This document shows positions 5,139 through 13,788 of a stretch of DNA of 64,000 nt, one piece after another. The notes under the pieces are model-generated. The model searched no databases. It was not told where the DNA came from and worked only from the letters and a program-made list of their open reading frames with translations. The translations under genes were made by a program, and so were the position numbers. Origin of the DNA: Gemmatimonadales bacterium (GTDB taxonomy: Bacteria > Gemmatimonadota > Gemmatimonadetes > Gemmatimonadales > GWC2-71-9); contig DATJXC010000073.1 in the NCBI GenBank assembly GCA_035500495.1, positions 4,841-68,840 of the forward strand. Reading direction: 5' to 3'. Position 1 is the stretch's first letter, and the number at the start of each line of letters is the position of its first letter.

Positions 5139-5810
5139 GTGCCGGCGGAGGCCACGCTCAACAACGTGCCGCTGTTCAGTCAACTGACCCCTTCCGACCT
5201 CCAGCGAGTGGAAGAGCTGGCCCGCGAGCGGGTGTACCCCAAGAACTCGGTCATCTTGTTCGAGGACGACCCTGGGGACGCCCTGTACGTGGTCAAACAG
5301 GGTCAGGTCAAGGTGGTCCTGATCGGCGAGGATGGGCGCGAGGTCATTCTCTCGGTGCTGGGAGAAGGCCAGTTCTTCGGGGAAATGGCGCTCCTGGACG
5401 ACGAGCCCCGCTCCGCCCACGTGATCGCCATGGAAGACTCGACGCTCGTAGTCCTGCGACGGGAGGACTTCCAGGGGATTCTGGGCCAAAGTCCCGCCCT
5501 GGCCCTGGCCCTGCTGCGGGAACTCACTCGCCGGCTACGCCGCGCCGATGAAAAGGTGGGCAGTCTCGTCCTGCTGGACGTCAACGGCCGCGTCGCCCGC
5601 ATGCTGCTGGACATGGCGGACGAAGAGGGGGGCGACCGCATCACCCGACGGCTCACGCACCACACCATCGCCCAAATGATCGGGTCGTCCCGTGAGACCG
5701 TGAGCCGGACGATGCGAGAGCTCTCCGACAAGGGCTTCATCGACGTCACCCGCAAGGACATCGTGTTGCGGGACCGGCCGGGCCTCGAGGCCGCAGCCGG
5801 CCGGTCGTGA
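5139..5810 (+). CDS. crp: Crp/Fnr family transcriptional regulator
   Basis: cNMP-binding domain FFGEMALL..PRSA; HTH SSRETVSR. Confidence 0.92.
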   Translation: MPAEATLNNVPLFSQLTPSDLQRVEELARERVYPKNSVILFEDDPGDALYVVKQGQVKVVLIGEDGREVILSVLGEGQFFGEMALLDDEPRSAHVIAMEDSTLVVLRREDFQGILGQSPALALALLRELTRRLRRADEKVGSLVLLDVNGRVARMLLDMADEEGGDRITRRLTHHTIAQMIGSSRETVSRTMRELSDKGFIDVTRKDIVLRDRPGLEAAAGRS

Positions 5811-5887: not shown

Positions 5888-6769
5888 GTGCCCGAACGGA
5901 TGGCCTACACGGTGACCTTCTGGGGGAGTCGGGGCTCAATCCCGACACCCGGAGCCCACACCGCGCGCTACGGCGGGAACACGCCGTGTGTCGCAGTGGA
6001 GGGCGCCGGGCAGCTCGTGATTCTCGATGCCGGCACCGGGATTCGCGGCCTCGGTCTGCTCCTCGCGGAACGACAGAACGGCGCGGTCAACGCGGAAATT
6101 CTGCTGTCGCACACGCACTGGGACCACATCCAGGGGCTGCCGCATTTCAAGCCCTTCTTCACCAAGGGCAACGTGGTCCGGATCTGGGGAGCCAAGCAGG
6201 GACGGACGTCGCTCGAAACCATTCTGCACCTGCAGATGGATCCCGCGGTGTTCCCGGTGCCGCTCTCCGCCGTGGCCGCCGAGCTGTCGGTGCGGGAAGT
6301 GGCGAGTGACGACGGTGAGTTCGAGGTCGGGCCGTTCCGGGTGCGCACGATGCCGCTCCGCCACCCAGGGACGACGCTGGCCTACCGGCTGACGCCGGTC
6401 GCCGGCGGGGCGAGCATGGCGTACGTGACGGATAACGAGCTCGGGCCGGGCGGTAACTACGAGGTCCCCGCCGGCTGGCGCGGCTCGCTGGTGAAGTTTT
6501 TGTCGGGAGTGGAGCTGTTGGTGCACGACGCGATGTACACCGGCCAGGAGCTGGAGACGCACCGGGGCTGGGGCCACTCCTCGATCGACGAAGCGGTGGC
6601 GCTCGCCGCGGAGGCGGGCGTGCGCCGGCTCGTACTGTTCCATCACGAGCCGGAACATGACGATCGGATAATGGACGGGCTGGTGGCGGACGCTTGCGCG
6701 GAAGCGAAGCGCCGCCGTGGCCCTCAAGAAGTGTTGGCGGCCCAGGACGGGCTGCGACTGACTCTCTGA
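5888..6769 (+). CDS. MBL-fold metallo-hydrolase (possible phosphodiesterase)
   Basis: GSRGSIP..GGNT, LDAGTG, SHTHWDHIQG (HxHxDH), LFHH; start may be ATG 5900. Confidence 0.85.
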   Translation: MPERMAYTVTFWGSRGSIPTPGAHTARYGGNTPCVAVEGAGQLVILDAGTGIRGLGLLLAERQNGAVNAEILLSHTHWDHIQGLPHFKPFFTKGNVVRIWGAKQGRTSLETILHLQMDPAVFPVPLSAVAAELSVREVASDDGEFEVGPFRVRTMPLRHPGTTLAYRLTPVAGGASMAYVTDNELGPGGNYEVPAGWRGSLVKFLSGVELLVHDAMYTGQELETHRGWGHSSIDEAVALAAEAGVRRLVLFHHEPEHDDRIMDGLVADACAEAKRRRGPQEVLAAQDGLRLTL

Positions 6770-6781
6770 CAGGAGTACCCT

Positions 6782-7486
6782 ATGCGCGCGCGTCTTCCCC
6801 TCGTCCTCTTTGGCCTGCTCGCCCTGGCCGGTGTCGCCAGTGTTGCCGCCCAGGGAGGCGGATCGGACACCCGGCCGGGCCTCGCCGTATTCGCGTTCGA
6901 CAACGGTGGCTCTTACGGCGCGGACAAGGAGGACTACGACGCGCTGCAACGCGGATTCGCCGGCATGCTGATCGCCGAATTGGCCGCGAATCCGGCGCTG
7001 CGCCTGGTGGAGCGGGATAACGTCCAGAAGCTGCTGGATGAGCAGAACCTCGCCGCTTCCGGTCGCGTGGACGCTCAAACCGCGGCGAAGGTCGGCAAGC
7101 TCGTGGGGGCCCGCTACGCGATCGTCGGCGACTTCGTCGAGCTCTCCGGCCAGTTCAACGTATCAGCACGCGTGGTCAACGTCGAAACCAGCGAGATCAT
7201 GAAGGTCGCGAGCGAACGGAACACCCGCGACCACTTGTTCGACATCGTGCGCGCGCTCGCCGCGGACCTGAACAAGCAGATGAACTTCCCGGCCCTGCCC
7301 AAACAGGTATCGGAACAGCGGATGAGCCGGGAGGTGCCGACCGAGGCGCTGACCTACTACAGCCGGGCGCTCCTCTACCAGGACCGTGGGCAGCGGGACA
7401 AGGCGATCGAGTACTACAACAAGGCGCTGACGGCTTTCCCGCAGTACACGGAGGCGTCGGAGGGCTTGAAGCGCCTGCAAGGCTGA
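6782..7486 (+). CDS. Exported CsgG/HfaB (TolB-N-like) domain protein with C-terminal TPR
   Basis: Sec signal; AVFAFDN...LRLVER..VQKLLDEQ..A.K.GKLVGA..AIVG; C-terminal A..YY.KAL...P.Y TPR pattern. Confidence 0.75.
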   Translation: MRARLPLVLFGLLALAGVASVAAQGGGSDTRPGLAVFAFDNGGSYGADKEDYDALQRGFAGMLIAELAANPALRLVERDNVQKLLDEQNLAASGRVDAQTAAKVGKLVGARYAIVGDFVELSGQFNVSARVVNVETSEIMKVASERNTRDHLFDIVRALAADLNKQMNFPALPKQVSEQRMSREVPTEALTYYSRALLYQDRGQRDKAIEYYNKALTAFPQYTEASEGLKRLQG

Positions 7487-7496
7487 CGGCGAGGCA

Positions 7497-8276
7497 GTGA
7501 ACGTCGTCACCCGACTCGGCGCAGCGACGGCGCGCCGGCTCTCCCGTTTGGGGGCGCTGGCGCGCTTCGGCTTTGGCGCCGTGCGGGCGGGGCTCACGCT
7601 GCCGCGCGCCGGGCGCGCGGTCGCGGTCCGGGTCACGATCAACCAGGTGCGGTTCACCGCGGTGAACGCGGTCGGCCTGATCCTGCTGCTGTCGAGCATC
7701 CTGTCGTTCCTCGTCATCTCCCAGGCGGTCCGCCAGCTCGGCCAGCTGGGCGTGACGGACCTGATCGGGACCCTGATGGTGGTCGCGATCGTGCGCGAGC
7801 TGGGCCCGCTCATCACCGCCCTCGCCGTAGCCGGGCGGTCGGGAACGGCGATCGCGGCGGAGCTGGCCACGAACAAGGTGATGGGCGAAGTCCGCGCTCT
7901 TGAAGCGATGGGCATCGATCCGCAGCAGTACCTGGTGGTGCCGCGGTTTCTGGGCGCCCTGATCAGCGTTTTCGCCTTGCTCGTGTTGTTCGACGTGGTG
8001 GCCATCGCCGCCGGATTCGCGGCCGCCAGCTTGAACGGGATGACCGGCGCCCGCTATTCCGAGATCGTGCTGCAACAGCTCTCGCTCATCGACGTCTGGC
8101 TGACCGTCGCCAAGGCCGCGGCGTTCGGCGTGATCGTCGGTCTCGTCCCCAGCTACTTCGGCCTGTCGGTGCGCCGCGCGCCCACCGAGGTACCGATCGC
8201 CGTCAGCCGGGCCACGGTGGTGCAGATCGTGGGGATCTTCGTCGCGTCGGCGCTGTTCGCGGCCGTGACACGGTGA
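7497..8276 (+). CDS. mlaE: MlaE-family ABC transporter permease
   Basis: VRELGPLITALAVAGRSGTAIAAEL..NKV..EV.ALEAMGIDP..YLVVPR. Confidence 0.92.
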   Translation: MNVVTRLGAATARRLSRLGALARFGFGAVRAGLTLPRAGRAVAVRVTINQVRFTAVNAVGLILLLSSILSFLVISQAVRQLGQLGVTDLIGTLMVVAIVRELGPLITALAVAGRSGTAIAAELATNKVMGEVRALEAMGIDPQQYLVVPRFLGALISVFALLVLFDVVAIAAGFAAASLNGMTGARYSEIVLQQLSLIDVWLTVAKAAAFGVIVGLVPSYFGLSVRRAPTEVPIAVSRATVVQIVGIFVASALFAAVTR

Positions 8277-8280
8277 TGCC

Positions 8281-8979
8281 GTGAGCACACCGCCCGCGCC
8301 TCAAGGCCCTCCGCTTTCGTTCGAGGACGTGCCGCTGTCGCCGCGCCACGCGCGGCCGCTGACCCTCGAAGTGCCGGAGCACGAAACGGTCGCGGTGCTG
8401 GGCGATGAGGACTCGGGGGTGAATGCCCTCGGCGGCTACGCGCTCGCACTCGAGGCGCCGCGCGGCGGGCGGATCCGCGTGTACGGGACGGCCCTGGAGG
8501 ACCTCCCGGAACACGAACGCTTGGCCTTCCGGCGCCGCGTGGGCTACCTTCCCGCCGGCGACGCCCTGCTGCAAAATCTCTCACTGCGGGACAACGTGGC
8601 GTTACCGCTGCGGTTCGGGAGCGGCCTCCCCGGCCGGGAAATCGACGGGCGGGTGAACGTGATGCTCGCGGCGGTCCGGCTCACGGAGCTGGCGAAACTC
8701 CGCCCGGCGCAGGTAAACGAGGAAGGGCGCCGGCGGGCTGGGTTTGCCCGTGCCATGGCCTTTGACCCGGCACTGTTGATCCTGGAGCAGCCGTTCGACG
8801 GCATCACCTCACGGGCCGCGGCCGAGCTGCTCGAGATCGCCCGGGGTGGAGAGACCGCGAGCGGGGCGCGGCGGACGATTCTCCTGACCGGCCAGGAGCT
8901 GCCGCCGCTGTTGTTGCGGCGCGCGGATCGCGTATACCGTCTCTCGCGCACAGGGGCGCTGGAGCTGGAGACGGCCTGA
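8281..8979 (+). CDS. MlaF-like ABC ATP-binding-fold protein with degenerate catalytic motifs
   Basis: ABC fold recognisable (L..NL.LRDNVALPL, RAMAFDP.LLIL) but Walker A, Q-loop, signature, Walker B and H-loop are all substituted. Confidence 0.8.
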   Translation: MSTPPAPQGPPLSFEDVPLSPRHARPLTLEVPEHETVAVLGDEDSGVNALGGYALALEAPRGGRIRVYGTALEDLPEHERLAFRRRVGYLPAGDALLQNLSLRDNVALPLRFGSGLPGREIDGRVNVMLAAVRLTELAKLRPAQVNEEGRRRAGFARAMAFDPALLILEQPFDGITSRAAAELLEIARGGETASGARRTILLTGQELPPLLLRRADRVYRLSRTGALELETA

Positions 8980-8990
8980 CTCGAGGCAGC

Positions 8991-9959
8991 GTGGACACCA
9001 CTCGCCAGGACTTCATCGTCGGCCTGCTGATCGTCACCGCCATCGCGGTCGTGGTGGGGGCGCTCCTCGCGACCAGCGGCTGGGGCGAGCGGCGCTACGA
9101 TCTCTACTTGCGCGCGGCGAACGCCGAAGGCCTGACCATCGACTCCCGAGTGCTGCTCCAGGGCCTGGAAGTGGGACGGGTGGTGAACGTCTCGCCGCGC
9201 GTGGATTCGATGACCCGGCACGTCTCGTTCATCGCCCGCCTCAAGGTCATCGAGCGATTCAGCGGCGGCGCGAACCTGCGCCTGCCGGTGGGGACATCGG
9301 CCCAGCTCGAGCAAGCCAACCAGCTCTCGCCCAACGTCCTCGTACGGCTGGTGCTCCCGGACACCGTGCGGCGGGGGGCGGGCAACGCCATGCTCGTCGC
9401 CGGCGACACCATCGACTCGGAGCGGAAGGCGCCGGTGTTGAACGAAGTGGCCGACGTCGCGACGCGCCTCTCGACGGAGGTGACCGACGTCCTCCACGCC
9501 GCGCACCAGACGCTGCTCGCCGTGCAGAGCACGCTGCGCCAGGCGAACACGACCATCGCCGACCTGCGCCCCGACGTGCGCCGGACCCTGGCCAACGTGG
9601 CCTCGACCATGGACCGGATCAATACCCTGGTGGCCCGCGTCGACCCGGGGCTCGCCGACACCGTGTCCCGGGCGGTCGTGCTCTCGACCCGCACCCTGGC
9701 CCGCCTCGACTCGCTGATCGCGAACGCGAACGCGATGACGGTGGAGAACCGCCAGGACATCCGCGGCACGATGCAGAACATCGACCATCTGACGCTGCAG
9801 CTCAATCACCTCGCCGAAGAAATGTCGCGGCGTCCCTATCGGTTTCTCACGGGCGTGAAGCCGCTCAGCTTCGACACCAATCCTCCTCCCGGGGCTTCGA
9901 CCGTCCACGCGGACTCGGTCCGCGCCTCGGCCGTGGCCAAAGACAGCACGCACCCGTGA
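8991..9959 (+). CDS. mlaD: MlaD/MCE-domain protein with long helical C-terminal tail
   Basis: N-terminal TM, A.GL...S.V..QGLEVG.V MCE motif, heptad-rich C-terminal half. Confidence 0.85.
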   Translation: MDTTRQDFIVGLLIVTAIAVVVGALLATSGWGERRYDLYLRAANAEGLTIDSRVLLQGLEVGRVVNVSPRVDSMTRHVSFIARLKVIERFSGGANLRLPVGTSAQLEQANQLSPNVLVRLVLPDTVRRGAGNAMLVAGDTIDSERKAPVLNEVADVATRLSTEVTDVLHAAHQTLLAVQSTLRQANTTIADLRPDVRRTLANVASTMDRINTLVARVDPGLADTVSRAVVLSTRTLARLDSLIANANAMTVENRQDIRGTMQNIDHLTLQLNHLAEEMSRRPYRFLTGVKPLSFDTNPPPGASTVHADSVRASAVAKDSTHP

Positions 9960-11896
9960 GCTACCTCCTGCTGCACCCGGAGACCTGGTCGCCCGGCACC
10001 CTGGCGCCCGCTCTCGCGTCGGCACGGGTCGAGACGCGCGTCGTGCGGAAACGCGAGGAGCTGGCTCCGGCCGATCACCCGACCGTCCTGTTGCTGGACG
10101 TGAGCGGACGGGCGCAGTTCCCGACGGAGCTGCTGCGGGCGTTCGTCGACGCGGGCGGCGCCATCGTCGCCCTGGCCCGGCCGGAGGAGTCAGACGTGCC
10201 CGACGACCTCCCCACCGAGCTGTTGACGGGGTTCATCCCGGCTAATGGCGGCACCCGGCAGCTGCTCGTGGCACTGCGCTCGGGGTACCGCGAGGCCGCC
10301 GCCCGTCAGGAGACGGCCCGGGCCCGCAATGAGGCCGCGCTCCGCAGTCGCGAGATCGGTGAGCTGACGCGCATCGGCGTCGCCCTCGGGACCGAGCGGG
10401 ACCTGGACACGCTGCTCGGTCTCATCCTGTCGCTGGCCCGCGACGTCACCCAATCGGATGCCGGCAGCCTCTACCTCGTGGAGCAACCCGAAGGGGGTAG
10501 CGGGAGCAAGCGCCTGAGCTTCCGGTTGGCCCAGAATCTCTCCAAACCTGACGTGCCGTTCGTCCAATTCACGATCCCGATGGACCGGACGAGCATCGCC
10601 GGGTACGCCGCGACGACGGGTGAGCCTCTCGTCCACGACGACGCGTATTTCCTGCCCCCCGATGTCGAGTACTCCATCAACCGGTCGTTCGACGAGCGCT
10701 ACGGGTATCGCACCAAGTCGATGCTGGTCATCCCGATGAAGGATCATAAGGACGACGTCATCGGCGTGCTGCAGCTGATCAACCGCAAGCGCGATACGCA
10801 AGCGATCCTCGCCACGCCGGCGGACGTCGACGCGCAGGTCGTGCCCTACTCGAAGCGCACGGTTGAGCTCGTTACGGCGCTCGCTGGCCAGGCGGGAGTG
10901 GCGATCGAGAACAGCAAGCTGTACGAGCAGATCGAGAAGATGTTCGAGAAGTTCGTGAACGCCGCCGTGCTCGCGATCGAGCAGCGCGACCCCACCACCT
11001 ACGGTCACAGCGGTCGCGTGGCGGGCTACACCGTCGGCCTGGCGCAAGTGGTGGACCGCGTTGCCGACGGCCCCCACCGCGGCACCAAGTTCACCAGGGA
11101 GCAGATCCGCGAGATCAAGTACGCGGGCCTGCTGCACGACTTCGGCAAAGTCGGCGTGCGGGAGCAGGTACTCGTCAAGGCCAAAAAGCTCTATCCGATG
11201 GACCTCACGGTGATCCGGCAGCGGCACGCGTTCGTGCGCCGCACCCTGGAGCGGGACTTCTGGCGCCAGCGGGCGGAGTTCCTCGAGGCGAAGGGTAAGG
11301 ATGGCTATGCCGCGTTCATCGGGCGCCTCGAGACGGACCAGCAACGCGAGCTGGCGGAGCTCGATCGCTTTCTCGAGATGGTGCTCCAGGCGAACGAGCC
11401 GAGCCTGTTGCCGGCCGAGCACGCGCAGGGTCTCACCGACTTCGCCCAGCGGACGTACGTGAATCTCGAAGGGGAGCCGCAGCCCCTCTTGAACCCCGAC
11501 GAGGTGCGGTTCCTGACGATTCCGAAGGGGAGTCTCGATGAATCCGAGCGACTCGAGATCGAGAGTCACGTCACCCACACTTTCAACTTCCTCCAGCAGA
11601 TTCCGTGGACCCCGGAGCTGGCGCATATCCCGTTGATCGCGTTCGGGCACCATGAAAAGCTGGACGGCAGCGGGTATCCCAAGCACAAGCGGGCGACCGA
11701 GATCCCGATTCAAACGCGGATGATGACGATCTCGGACATCTATGACGCCCTGACCGCCCAAGACCGCCCCTATAAGCGGGCCGTCCCGCCCACCCGGGCC
11801 CTCGACATCATGTCCTCTGAAGTGCAGCGCGGGCAGCTCGATGCCGACCTGTTCAAGGTCTTCGTCGACGCCAGGGTCTTCGAGGCGCCCGCCTAG
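9956..11896 (+). CDS. GAF + HD-GYP cyclic dinucleotide phosphodiesterase with degenerate REC-like N-terminus
   Basis: GAF (SIAGY, KSMLVIPM, GVLQLIN); EQRDPTTYGHS, LLHDFGK, HHEKLDGSGYP, DIYDALT..DRPYK; helical insertion splits the HD domain. Confidence 0.9.
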   Translation: MSYLLLHPETWSPGTLAPALASARVETRVVRKREELAPADHPTVLLLDVSGRAQFPTELLRAFVDAGGAIVALARPEESDVPDDLPTELLTGFIPANGGTRQLLVALRSGYREAAARQETARARNEAALRSREIGELTRIGVALGTERDLDTLLGLILSLARDVTQSDAGSLYLVEQPEGGSGSKRLSFRLAQNLSKPDVPFVQFTIPMDRTSIAGYAATTGEPLVHDDAYFLPPDVEYSINRSFDERYGYRTKSMLVIPMKDHKDDVIGVLQLINRKRDTQAILATPADVDAQVVPYSKRTVELVTALAGQAGVAIENSKLYEQIEKMFEKFVNAAVLAIEQRDPTTYGHSGRVAGYTVGLAQVVDRVADGPHRGTKFTREQIREIKYAGLLHDFGKVGVREQVLVKAKKLYPMDLTVIRQRHAFVRRTLERDFWRQRAEFLEAKGKDGYAAFIGRLETDQQRELAELDRFLEMVLQANEPSLLPAEHAQGLTDFAQRTYVNLEGEPQPLLNPDEVRFLTIPKGSLDESERLEIESHVTHTFNFLQQIPWTPELAHIPLIAFGHHEKLDGSGYPKHKRATEIPIQTRMMTISDIYDALTAQDRPYKRAVPPTRALDIMSSEVQRGQLDADLFKVFVDARVFEAPA

Positions 11897-11910: not shown

Positions 11911-13788
11911 ATGAACCGCCGCGACTTCGTCCTGAGTACCGCTGCGCTGGCCACCCTGCCCCGCTGGCTGCGGCTCGCCCCGTCTGCCGGTCCGCTCCGC
12001 GTCCGACCGTTCGACCTGCGATCGGTGCGACTGCGCCCCGGGCCGTTCCTCGATGCGCTCCAGGTGAATCGCCGCTTTCTGATGGGGCTCGATCCAGACC
12101 GGCTGCTGCACATGTTCCGTCTCACCGCCGGGCTCCCTTCCACCGCCGAGCCACTGGGCGGGTGGGAGGCACCGGACAACGAGCTGCGCGGGCACTTTAC
12201 GGGACACTATCTCTCGGCCGGCGCCCTCCTGTCCGCCAGCCTGGACGATCCCGAGGTTCGCGCGCGAGTCGACCTGATGGTGGCCGAGCTCGCCAAGTGC
12301 CAGCAGGCGCTCGGCACGGGATACCTCTCCGCCTTCCCGGAAGAGCTGTTCGACCGGTTGCGGGACGGGAGGCCGGTGTGGGCTCCTTTCTATACGCTCC
12401 ACAAGATTCTCGCCGGGCTACTGGACGCCCACACCATCGGCGGCAACGTCCAGGCCTTGGACGTCGCGACTCGGCTCGCGCGCTGGACGGCGCGCTGGGT
12501 GCAGCCGCTGGGTGACGCGGCCATGGCGCGGGTCCTGGAGCGCGAATTCGGCGGGATGAACGAGGCGCTTTACAATCTGGCCGCCATCACCGGTGAGCCG
12601 GCGTGGCGCGATCTGGCGCACCGCTTCGACCACGAGCGCATCTTCGGCCCCTTGGCAGACGGGCGCGATGAGCTGAAGGGCCTGCACGTCAATACCACGA
12701 TCCCGAAGATCATCGGCGCGGCCCGACGCTACGAGGTGACGGGCGACGAGCGGGCCCGGCGCGTGGCGGAGTACTTCTGGCGCGAAGTCACTACCCGGCG
12801 GGCCTTCTGCACCGGGGGGACGAGCAACGGCGAAAGTTGGAACGCCGACCCCGGGATCATCGCCGGCGAGCTTTCGGCCTACACCCAGGAATGCTGCACC
12901 AGCTACAACATGCTGAAGCTCACCCGCCACCTGCTGCAATGGACCACGGACCCCAGAGTGGCGGACTACTACGAGCGCCTGCTCTGGAACGGCGTGCTGG
13001 GCGCGCAGCACCCGGCAGATGGGTCGAAGCTCTACTACGTCCCGCTGGCGAGCGGGTACTGGAAGCTGTTCGGCACTCCGCTGCACGACTTCTGGTGCTG
13101 CACCGGGACCGGGAGCGAGTCGTTCGCGAAGTTCGGCGACAGCATCTACTTCCACGATGCTGGCGGGCTGTACGTCAACCAGTTCATCGCGTCGGAGCTC
13201 GATTGGGCGGACCGGGGAGTGCGCCTGATTCAGGACACCCGGTTTCCGGAAGTCGGGAGCACGACCATCACTGTGCGCACCTCGCGATCGGTCCGCTTCG
13301 CCTTGCGCTTGCGGATCCCCGAGTGGGCGGGCGACGGAGGGTCGGCGGCCCTGAATGGCCGCACCCTCGAAGGATTCGCGGCCTCGGGGAGCTACTTCGT
13401 GCTCACGCGTAGCTGGAAGGACGGGGACCGGGTGGAGTTGACCCTGCCGCTGACTCTTCAGGTCGAGCCGACACCTGACGATCCCTCGCTCCAAGCCGTG
13501 ACCTACGGCCCGCTCGTTCTGATCGGCCGCCTGGGCGCCGCCGGGCTGACGCCCGAGCACCTGCGCGCGGAGCCGACCAAACCGCGCACCGTCCCCGAAT
13601 TCAAGCTCGAGCCCGTCGCCGCTCCCGCGCTCCGCATGCCCGCGCAAGGCGTCACCGCCCTCATCCAGGCCGTCCCGGAACGACCGCTGGAGTTCCGGAC
13701 CGTGGGGCAGAGCCAGGACGTGACCCTCGTTCCCTTCTACCGGCTGTTCGACGAGCGGTACGCGGTCTACTGGAAGGTCGTTACCTAG
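11911..13788 (+). CDS. Tat-exported GH127/GH146 beta-L-arabinofuranosidase-like glycoside hydrolase (DUF1680)
   Basis: MNRRDFV Tat motif; GHFTGHYLSA, E.GGMNE, QECCTSYNMLK, FWCCTGTG.E. Confidence 0.88.
   Translation: MNRRDFVLSTAALATLPRWLRLAPSAGPLRVRPFDLRSVRLRPGPFLDALQVNRRFLMGLDPDRLLHMFRLTAGLPSTAEPLGGWEAPDNELRGHFTGHYLSAGALLSASLDDPEVRARVDLMVAELAKCQQALGTGYLSAFPEELFDRLRDGRPVWAPFYTLHKILAGLLDAHTIGGNVQALDVATRLARWTARWVQPLGDAAMARVLEREFGGMNEALYNLAAITGEPAWRDLAHRFDHERIFGPLADGRDELKGLHVNTTIPKIIGAARRYEVTGDERARRVAEYFWREVTTRRAFCTGGTSNGESWNADPGIIAGELSAYTQECCTSYNMLKLTRHLLQWTTDPRVADYYERLLWNGVLGAQHPADGSKLYYVPLASGYWKLFGTPLHDFWCCTGTGSESFAKFGDSIYFHDAGGLYVNQFIASELDWADRGVRLIQDTRFPEVGSTTITVRTSRSVRFALRLRIPEWAGDGGSAALNGRTLEGFAASGSYFVLTRSWKDGDRVELTLPLTLQVEPTPDDPSLQAVTYGPLVLIGRLGAAGLTPEHLRAEPTKPRTVPEFKLEPVAAPALRMPAQGVTALIQAVPERPLEFRTVGQSQDVTLVPFYRLFDERYAVYWKVVT

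Follow-up and report, generated by a model that had tools for sequence, protein, structure and literature searches.

What defines ATP-binding cassette (ABC) transporters is the ATP-driven closure of a dimer of nucleotide-binding domains (NBDs). Mycobacterial Mce systems share an orphan ATPase, MceG, and their operons encode no NBD. The phospholipid ABC transporter MlaFEDB is known from E. coli, A. baumannii and P. aeruginosa (PDB 6xbd, 6xgz, 7d06; PMC7784689), and for MlaEFD of Veillonella parvula a trans-envelope bridge, not a shuttle, has been proposed (PMC10665443). LetAB and PqiABC are MCE lipid conduits that work without an ABC ATPase (PMC13017536; bioRxiv 10.64898/2026.09.15.751761), and heterodimeric ABC transporters with a degenerate site invariably retain a single consensus site, while ATP binding persists at the degenerate site (PMC7756269). 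Here we analyzed a 64,000-nucleotide stretch of contig DATJXC010000073.1 (hereafter the window) from a soil Gemmatimonadales bacterium (genome 3.36 Mb, 98.7% complete). We use the label psF for the ABC nucleotide-binding-fold protein that is encoded at positions 8281-8979 of the window and holds the MlaF position between genes for an MlaE permease and an MCE protein. Judged by its sequence, psF is an ATP-blind but conserved NBD subunit and belongs to a divergent Mla-like MCE system, the third in this genome. We consider it fairly probable that psF has a non-catalytic role, as a clamp or regulatory subunit, in an MCE conduit that is independent of ATP.

Replacement of the ATP-site motifs in psF

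The psF gene and the former motifs within it are located as follows.

8281-8979, + strand: psF, GTG start, 232 amino acids (aa), NBD fold in the MlaF position with all ATP-site motifs replaced
8401-8424, + strand: former Walker A, GDEDSGVN (residues 41-48), which does not match the canonical GxxGxGK[ST]
8542-8619, + strand: former Q-loop and start of the helical subdomain (residues 88-113), with the Q-loop GYLPAGD at residues 88-94
8713-8736, + strand: former signature, VNEEGRRR, with VNEEG at residues 145-149 (8713-8727)
8773-8808, + strand: former Walker B and D-loop, LLILEQPF-DGIT, with LLILEQP at residues 165-171 (8773-8793)
8887-8898, + strand: former H-loop, TGQE, with LTGQ at residues 202-205

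At the former Walker A, family members conform to G-[DE]-E-x-S-G-[VI]-x, and both the Lys and the Ser/Thr are missing. G41 and G46 are invariant, E43 and S45 are conserved to 95% and 93%, the fourth glycine of the motif is replaced by a variable D/E/N/A/H, and E43 brings a negative charge into the P-loop. The Q-loop glutamine is gone, with the canonical F91-Q92 replaced by P91 (95% conserved) and A92 (73%). The signature LSGGM-RKR has given way to [NT]-E-E-x-[RC]-R-R, in which E148, R151 and R152 are invariant. The Walker B Asp is replaced by Glu (E169, 95% conserved), and P171 and F172 behind it are invariant, while the catalytic-Glu position 170 varies between Q, L, A and R, with Q in only 56%. 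The H-loop His is replaced by Q or R at the variable position 205, where conservation is merely average. An earlier note on this DNA, made from its letters alone, had claimed that all five catalytic motifs are replaced. This was confirmed, and the D-loop is altered as well (DGIT in psF and DGLT in the family vs. the canonical S/A-G-L-D). The residue numbering of psF coincides with that of E. coli MlaF, in which K47, T48 and S146 bind ATP (PMC7784689); the psF equivalents of these residues and of E170 are V47, N48, N146 and Q170.

Profile searches gave a matching picture. The Pfam model PF00005 (ABC_tran) scores psF at 39 bits (cut-off 25), and the NCBIfam MlaF equivalog NF008809 at 60 bits vs. 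a cut-off of 441. The NCBIfam FtsE and CysA models reach about 65 bits and NikE is equally good, with all ABC equivalogs far below their cut-offs. A PilZ-like reading of the "ExSxxG" stretch was judged to be a chance resemblance and dropped.

As read from these replacements, psF cannot form a canonical ATP site on either face, and because both faces are degenerate, no dimer containing psF can have a consensus site. We predict that psF no longer binds or hydrolyzes ATP. It is very unlikely that psF is still an ATPase or an ATP binder that relies on non-canonical residues. The whole fold and an aromatic residue at the A-loop position are retained, which would fit such an activity, but nothing is left of the Lys and Ser/Thr of Walker A, the Gln of the Q-loop, the Ser-Gly-Gly of the signature, the Asp-Glu pair of Walker B or the His of the H-loop. 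Moreover, the P-loop is acidic, and even the position of the catalytic base varies (Q/L/A/R). The E170Q exchange alone costs E. coli MlaF about 80% of its ATPase activity and leads to a growth defect (PMC7784689).

Fold and selective constraint

The AlphaFold2 model of psF, built on 57 orthologues, reached a predicted local distance difference test score (pLDDT) of 91.6 and a predicted template modeling score (pTM) of 0.89. Foldseek superposed psF on FtsE, the MacB NBD, MlaF (6xgz, 6xbd), LolD and MJ0796 at TM-scores of 0.8-0.84 (about 0.82 for MlaF, FtsE and LolD). The RecA-like core and the helical subdomain are thus both present according to PF00005, AlphaFold2 and Foldseek.

A search of 5.8 billion proteins returned more than 1,000 matches to psF. 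The best 120, at 65-92% identity, carry the same substitutes without exception (GDEDSG[VI]G, GYLPAGD, NEEERRR, LEQPF and ITGQE); their source organism, where named, is Gemmatimonadales, and their JGI label is often MlaF. The motif pattern also holds in genomic orthologues from two families, even where they are no more than about 47% identical to the protein of the window, in the forms G[DE]E-x-SG[VI], GY-x-[PQ]-x-GD, [NT]EE[DE][CR]RR, hhhhE-x-PF and T-x-[QR][DE]. For conservation measurements, we used 41 genomic orthologues from these two families (minimum pairwise identity 43%). In this set the six former motif stretches have a mean column entropy of 0.75 bits vs. 1.32 for the rest of the protein, and E43, S45, G46, E148, R151, R152, E169, P171 and F172 are invariant or nearly so. 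The ratio of nonsynonymous to synonymous substitution rates (dN/dS; NG86, pairwise within the genus) is 0.16 for psF; the corresponding values are 0.12 (mlaE), 0.16 (mce) and 0.13 (upstream lipoprotein gene). The dN/dS medians include genome G018, which is flagged as unpublished, and the motif table also G004; no conclusion rests on either.

The earlier note had described an intact pseudo-ATPase, to be checked by an alignment of orthologues and dN/dS, with canonical motifs in the orthologues as the sign of a merely local decay. Both checks were run. The degenerate residues are shared by the 120 database and the 41 genomic orthologues, and with the fold kept, the motifs lost and a dN/dS of 0.16, the description of psF as an intact pseudo-ATPase kept by selection was borne out.

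A conserved, presumed docking groove and the MlaE partner

The best-conserved block of psF is residues 81-113, which cover the Q-loop together with the helix that opens the helical subdomain (entropy 0.39-0.44 bits vs. 1.22 overall, within the top 3-4% of windows along the protein). In ABC transporters, this region forms the groove that receives the coupling helix of the permease. Within the block, L96, N105 and L108-P109-L110-R111 are common to psF and canonical MlaF.

The partner permease is encoded directly upstream of psF.

7497-8276, + strand: MlaE-family permease, partner of psF, 259 aa, PF02405 at 182 bits (above cut-off), divergent MlaE lineage

The coupling helix of MlaE lies between transmembrane helices 2 and 3 (PMC7784689). 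At this loop (about residues 120-142), the psF-linked MlaE reads AELATN-x-VMGEVRALE, a stretch that is highly conserved among 42 psF-linked MlaEs, whereas canonical MlaEs of Gemmatimonadales read AELG-t-MRVTEQ-x-DALE. The psF-linked MlaE is 58-77% identical to its orthologues, which always adjoin psF, as compared to 29-38% identity with canonical MlaEs. From the conservation of the psF groove and of the matching MlaE loop, and from the departure of this loop from the canonical form, we infer continued docking of psF on its MlaE, with co-adaptation of the two surfaces. The shared substitutes in orthologues, the low dN/dS and the conservation of the presumed docking groove together show that psF is under purifying selection and not a case of local decay.

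The MCE protein and the other Mla operons of the genome

Downstream of psF, the third gene of the trio encodes the MCE protein.

8991-9959, + strand: MCE protein, 322 aa, PF02470 at 28.5 bits (above cut-off), TIGR00996 at 43.8 bits

It consists of an N-terminal transmembrane helix, one MCE domain, about 140 helical residues and a disordered tail. AlphaFold2 placed a helix at residues 3-29, strands at 35-145 and helices at 149-287 (pLDDT 64, helices at low confidence). The gap between the mlaE stop (8276) and psF is 4 nt, and that between psF and the mce start (8991) is 11 nt. The tight coupling of an intact reading frame to mlaE and mlaD (here mce), as the earlier note had read it, was thereby upheld for the 232-aa frame, and so was its statement that psF is the only ABC ATPase-fold gene in the window, since psF is the sole ABC-fold match on the entire contig and the single NBD gene of its operon.

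The genome holds exactly three MlaE and three MCE genes, which are arranged in three E-F-D operons, and mlaE-psF-mce follows the same order as the other two. The F subunits of those two operons are canonical (GxxGxGKS, LSGGM, DEP and VTHD). The canonical operons lie on contigs C37 and C49 of the assembly, and at least one of them includes a long MCE open frame, of 364 aa on C49. MlaA (PF04333) and MlaC (PF05494) were not found in the 98.7%-complete genome, with controls matching in E. coli and Caulobacter. All three Mla systems of the genome therefore look like "bridge" types that lack MlaA and MlaC, and because the genome is without either protein, a bridge-type conduit is the likeliest architecture.

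The three operons also bear on the proposal of the earlier note that the complex may borrow an ATPase in trans, and the search for a canonical mlaF that it had suggested was carried out. If the psF-linked MlaE were powered by a canonical MlaF paralogue, either replacing psF or heterodimerizing with it, the two canonical MlaFs of the genome would be available, and a shared ATPase has a precedent in Mce systems. However, both canonical MlaFs have their own MlaE as an operon neighbor, and the search of the genome turned up no orphan MlaF-like gene. Additionally, the coupling-helix region of the psF-linked MlaE is unlike the canonical one, and the 4-nt spacing of mlaE and psF suggests 1:1 production. 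A psF/MlaF heterodimer would have no consensus site, since psF is degenerate in Walker A/B and H-loop as well as in the signature, and thus in both halves of the ATP sandwich, which sets it apart from the known asymmetric ABC dimers (PMC7756269). We found no support for borrowing and regard it as clearly unlikely.

Proposed mechanism

In the arrangement that we propose, two psF copies would bind the coupling helices on the cytoplasmic side of an MlaE dimer and thereby clamp the dimer. The resulting complex, putatively MlaE2-psF2-MCE6, may represent an ATP-independent and possibly gated lipid conduit; both the 2:2:6 stoichiometry and the lipid substrate are inferred. The long helical domain of the MCE protein would form the tube of this conduit, and the energetics would be comparable to those of the ATPase-less MCE systems LetAB and PqiABC. 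The transporter thus probably works, or is gated, without burning ATP itself. The presence of three E-F-D operons, two with a canonical MlaF and none accompanied by a substitute orphan ATPase, supports a non-catalytic clamp. The acidic residues retained at the old site (E43, E148 and E169), which face the conserved R151 and R152, suggest either a nucleotide-free dimer contact, with carboxylates in place of phosphates, or a site that would bind a cation or ligand.

Some observations weigh against psF being a plain clamp. An aromatic residue is retained at the A-loop position (F14, 81% conserved). The residues of the former ATP site (E43, S45, E148, E169, R151 and R152) are conserved beyond what a pure scaffold needs, which hints at a pocket or dimer interface that is still doing something specific. 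Furthermore, the trio is dispensable in many relatives, being present in 39 of 125 genomes of its own family and in none of 69 genomes of the sister family.

The conservation of E43, S45, G46, E148, E169, R151 and R152 at the old site would also be compatible with a sensor or gate, in which the remodeled ATP site or the psF-psF interface binds a ligand other than ATP and thereby gates the MlaE-MCE conduit. Candidate ligands are a divalent cation that bridges the conserved carboxylates, or a second messenger such as cyclic di-GMP (c-di-GMP). No known c-di-GMP-binding motif has been demonstrated in psF, and we rate such a sensor as rather unlikely, with the gene neighborhood pointing both ways (see below).

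Distribution, gene neighborhood and loss of the trio

psF was found in 21 of 23 genomes of the same genus and in all eight genomes of a second family, f3 (about 50% identity), and in none of eight genomes of a third family. Across a phylum sample of 301 genomes, the 39 carriers in the host's family (f1) are joined by 3 of 3 genomes of f3, and psF was not detected in the sister family f2 nor in f4-f12. Genomes without psF had no close homologue of the psF-linked MlaE, with only MlaEs of 29-38% identity; therefore, no orthologous operon with a canonical ATPase was found in them.

In every locus fetched, the trio genes are adjacent, and all loci with wide flanks showed the same order of genes, namely Crp-family regulator, MBL-fold (metallo-beta-lactamase) hydrolase, CsgG/LpoB-like protein with TPR, MlaE, psF, MCE and GAF/HD-GYP. 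In the window, the flanking members are the following.

5139-5810, + strand: Crp-family regulator, head of the conserved co-directional cluster
5888-6769, + strand: MBL-fold hydrolase, second gene of the cluster
6782-7486, + strand: exported CsgG/LpoB-like and TPR protein, directly upstream of mlaE
9956-11896, + strand: GAF and HD-GYP protein with intact HD, HHE and GYP motifs, start overlapping the mce stop by 4 nt

A 625-aa open reading frame (ORF) follows the cluster at 11911-13788 (+ strand) and was absent from the loci of relatives (tblastn). From family to family, the trio has diverged in parallel with its flanking genes, consistent with vertical descent.

Conservation of the cluster of Crp, MBL, CsgG/LpoB-TPR and GAF/HD-GYP genes extends over three families of Gemmatimonadales, and the trio may or may not lie between genes three and four of the cluster. 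Two psF-less genomes, G081 (same family) and G025 (f2), have this cluster intact with the trio missing. In G081, a deletion scar is preserved (locus L086, contig C8, 7901-8038), in which the first ~28 mlaE codons remain (...ARRLSRFGALARFGFGAL); joined to them in frame are four more codons, followed by a stop codon overlapping with the start of the GAF/HD-GYP gene. The full trio is present in two genomes of the same genus as G081. The junction corresponds to a single deletion of about 2.4 kb, and the trio was thus lost secondarily and as a unit. We conclude that mlaE-psF-mce behaves as one three-gene unit.

These losses would be expected if psF were a neutral relic, that is, a decaying gene with a frame not yet disrupted, and frameshifts in both mlaE and psF of genome G171 would fit as well. 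However, the frame of psF is intact in more than 40 genomes across two families, the dN/dS is low, the replacement residues are invariant and the AlphaFold2 model is confident, so that a relic is hardly credible. In G171, a single-contig genome (locus L088, contig C1), the frameshifts, at about 6870 and about 7575, split both mlaE and psF. One of them falls inside the conserved RRRAALARA stretch, and the five flanking genes align as single pieces. They represent either real decay of the trio or indel errors of the assembly.

The earlier note had considered psF as a scaffold or as a sensor of nucleotides or second messengers, and the complex as a possible signaling device. The trio of Gemmatimonadales does lie in a co-directional cluster that ends in an intact GAF/HD-GYP gene overlapping the mce stop, which would fit a sensor or gate responding to c-di-GMP. 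As the cluster is unchanged without the trio in G081 and G025, this adjacency may be positional, and the proposal is weakened on this side; on the other, a Myxococcota trio abuts a GGDEF cyclase, as described in the next section.

Origin and relatives in another phylum

In the NBD tree, psF forms a clade (99*) that is separate from canonical MlaF (97*) and from a generic ABC clade. This tree has long branches and open forks and does not place psF relative to MlaF and other ABC families. The derivation from MlaF therefore rests on gene order, and on this basis psF would descend from the NBD subunit of an Mla-type (MlaE-MlaF-MCE) transporter.

A HMMER scan of 1.84 billion representatives yielded only 10 proteins at E<=1e-30, and below this level followed a series of other partly or fully degenerate MlaF-like proteins. 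Many of the nearest matches outside the family (P0137-P0270) are partly degenerate MlaF-like NBDs. Examples show an intact Walker A combined with an LSxxxRR signature and a Walker B of the form hhhhDDP, or hhhhE[DE]P without the Walker A Lys. A metagenome scan with P0160, the nearest non-Gemmatimonadales relative in the NBD tree, gave only generic ABC genes at 21-28% identity.

A comparable trio was found in a metagenome-assembled genome (MAG) of Myxococcota.

DASYRF010000092.1, 4492-8853: Myxococcota MAG locus L090, GGDEF - MlaE - dead NBD - MCE - TPR, NBD HEV8320934.1

In the cyclase of this locus, both the GGDEF and the RxxD site are intact, and mlaE begins 1 nt after the cyclase stop codon. 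Downstream of the trio and TPR gene lie genes for an extracytoplasmic function (ECF) sigma factor and a zf-HC2 anti-sigma factor. For the third gene, an ORF at 6848-7837 was rejected, being in the wrong frame, Arg-rich and without a Pfam match; the MCE domain lies in 6702-7835. A second Myxococcota genome (G584) has the same trio at 41%, 45% and 25% identity. It was the only true relative (44% identity) in a search of 301 Myxococcota genomes at E<=1e-25, which otherwise returned mostly generic ABC NBDs, and a contig scan with the Myxococcota dead NBD detected only its own locus and generic ABCs. The MAG with the GGDEF locus also carries a canonical MlaE. We count the MlaE/dead NBD/MCE trio beside a canonical MlaE, in two genomes, as an independent parallel that supports the non-catalytic clamp. 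The trio starting 1 nt past a GGDEF cyclase speaks for a sensor or gate, but no recognizable c-di-GMP gene is located near the trio of G584.

psF and the Myxococcota dead NBDs share a Gly-Tyr in the Q-loop, the Walker B Asp-to-Glu replacement (hhhhE[DQ]P) and NVALPLR[FY]. A 100/99* split puts the partner MlaEs of both phyla together, apart from canonical MlaEs, although the Myxococcota MlaE branch is long and its join with the psF-linked MlaEs may be an artefact. The shared derived traits of the NBDs and, with this long-branch caveat, the grouping of the partner MlaEs support one origin across phyla. It is conceivable, though we judge it unlikely, that psF belongs to an old class spanning at least Gemmatimonadota and Myxococcota, in which the NBD would have become an ATP-blind clamp controlled by a ligand or cation, with E43/E148/E169 replacing the ATP phosphates at the dimer interface. 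Such a clamp would gate a passive lipid conduit, with input from local c-di-GMP signaling.

Comparison with known systems

In full-text literature searches, we found no description of an Mla or MCE operon with a dead NBD, nor of a homodimeric ABC system that is degenerate on both faces. With psF as its only NBD subunit, the presumably homodimeric transporter has no intact face left at either of its sites, yet psF is under purifying selection, together with its own permease and MCE partner, in two families. If the complex is active, an ABC-type permease would be usable without an ATP cycle. The system would then represent a natural experiment on what NBDs contribute besides energy, and would bear on how MCE lipid conduits are energized or gated, a question that arises for LetAB, PqiABC and the direction of Mla transport as well. 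The pipeline annotation "MlaF / ABC transporter ATP-binding protein" is functionally misleading for proteins of the psF type.

As in MlaFEDB, a single locus provides the permease (MlaE), the subunit with an NBD fold and the MCE protein, and the fold of psF is close to that of MlaF (TM-score above). In contrast to MlaFEDB, psF is without any ATP motif, the host genome yielded no MlaA or MlaC, and the MCE protein is long, with its 322 aa including a helical domain. psF also appears to end at the NBD core (232 vs. 269 aa), without the C-terminal extension with which MlaF embraces its partner MlaF and MlaB; it aligns to about 227-230 of the 260-269 MlaF residues, leaving no room for the extension (STAS/MlaB genes were not searched). 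The V. parvula MlaEFD system is closer in layout, with three genes in the order E-F-D, no MlaA or MlaC and an elongated MCE protein, but its MlaF has been described as closely resembling proteobacterial MlaF (PMC10665443).

The needle systems PA3211-PA3214 of P. aeruginosa and MpcEFDA of Brucella likewise combine an MlaE-like permease, an NBD and an MCE protein with a C-terminal helical needle (PMC13631591, PMC12436622). According to the predicted model, the helical MCE protein of our locus is similar to its needle-type counterparts in PA3211-14, Mpc and V. parvula. Unlike psF, the NBDs of PA3211-PA3214 and MpcEFDA are described as ATPases, with no mention of degenerate motifs (PMC13631591, PMC12436622). 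These systems also include a PqiC-like lipoprotein, whereas the CsgG/TPR protein that neighbors the trio here persists without it.

With mycobacterial Mce operons, the locus shares the lack of its own working ATPase; it differs from them in that no orphan MlaF-like ATPase was found and an NBD-fold subunit is present. The retention of an NBD with lost catalytic residues for allosteric or structural roles is known from heterodimeric ABC transporters (PMC7756269), but psF is degenerate on both faces and is encoded by the sole NBD gene of its operon, so that no second NBD supplies a consensus site. Finally, the membrane partners LetA and PqiA of the ATPase-less LetAB and PqiABC conduits have a different fold and no NBD-like subunit, whereas in the Gemmatimonadales system the ABC architecture is kept but disarmed.

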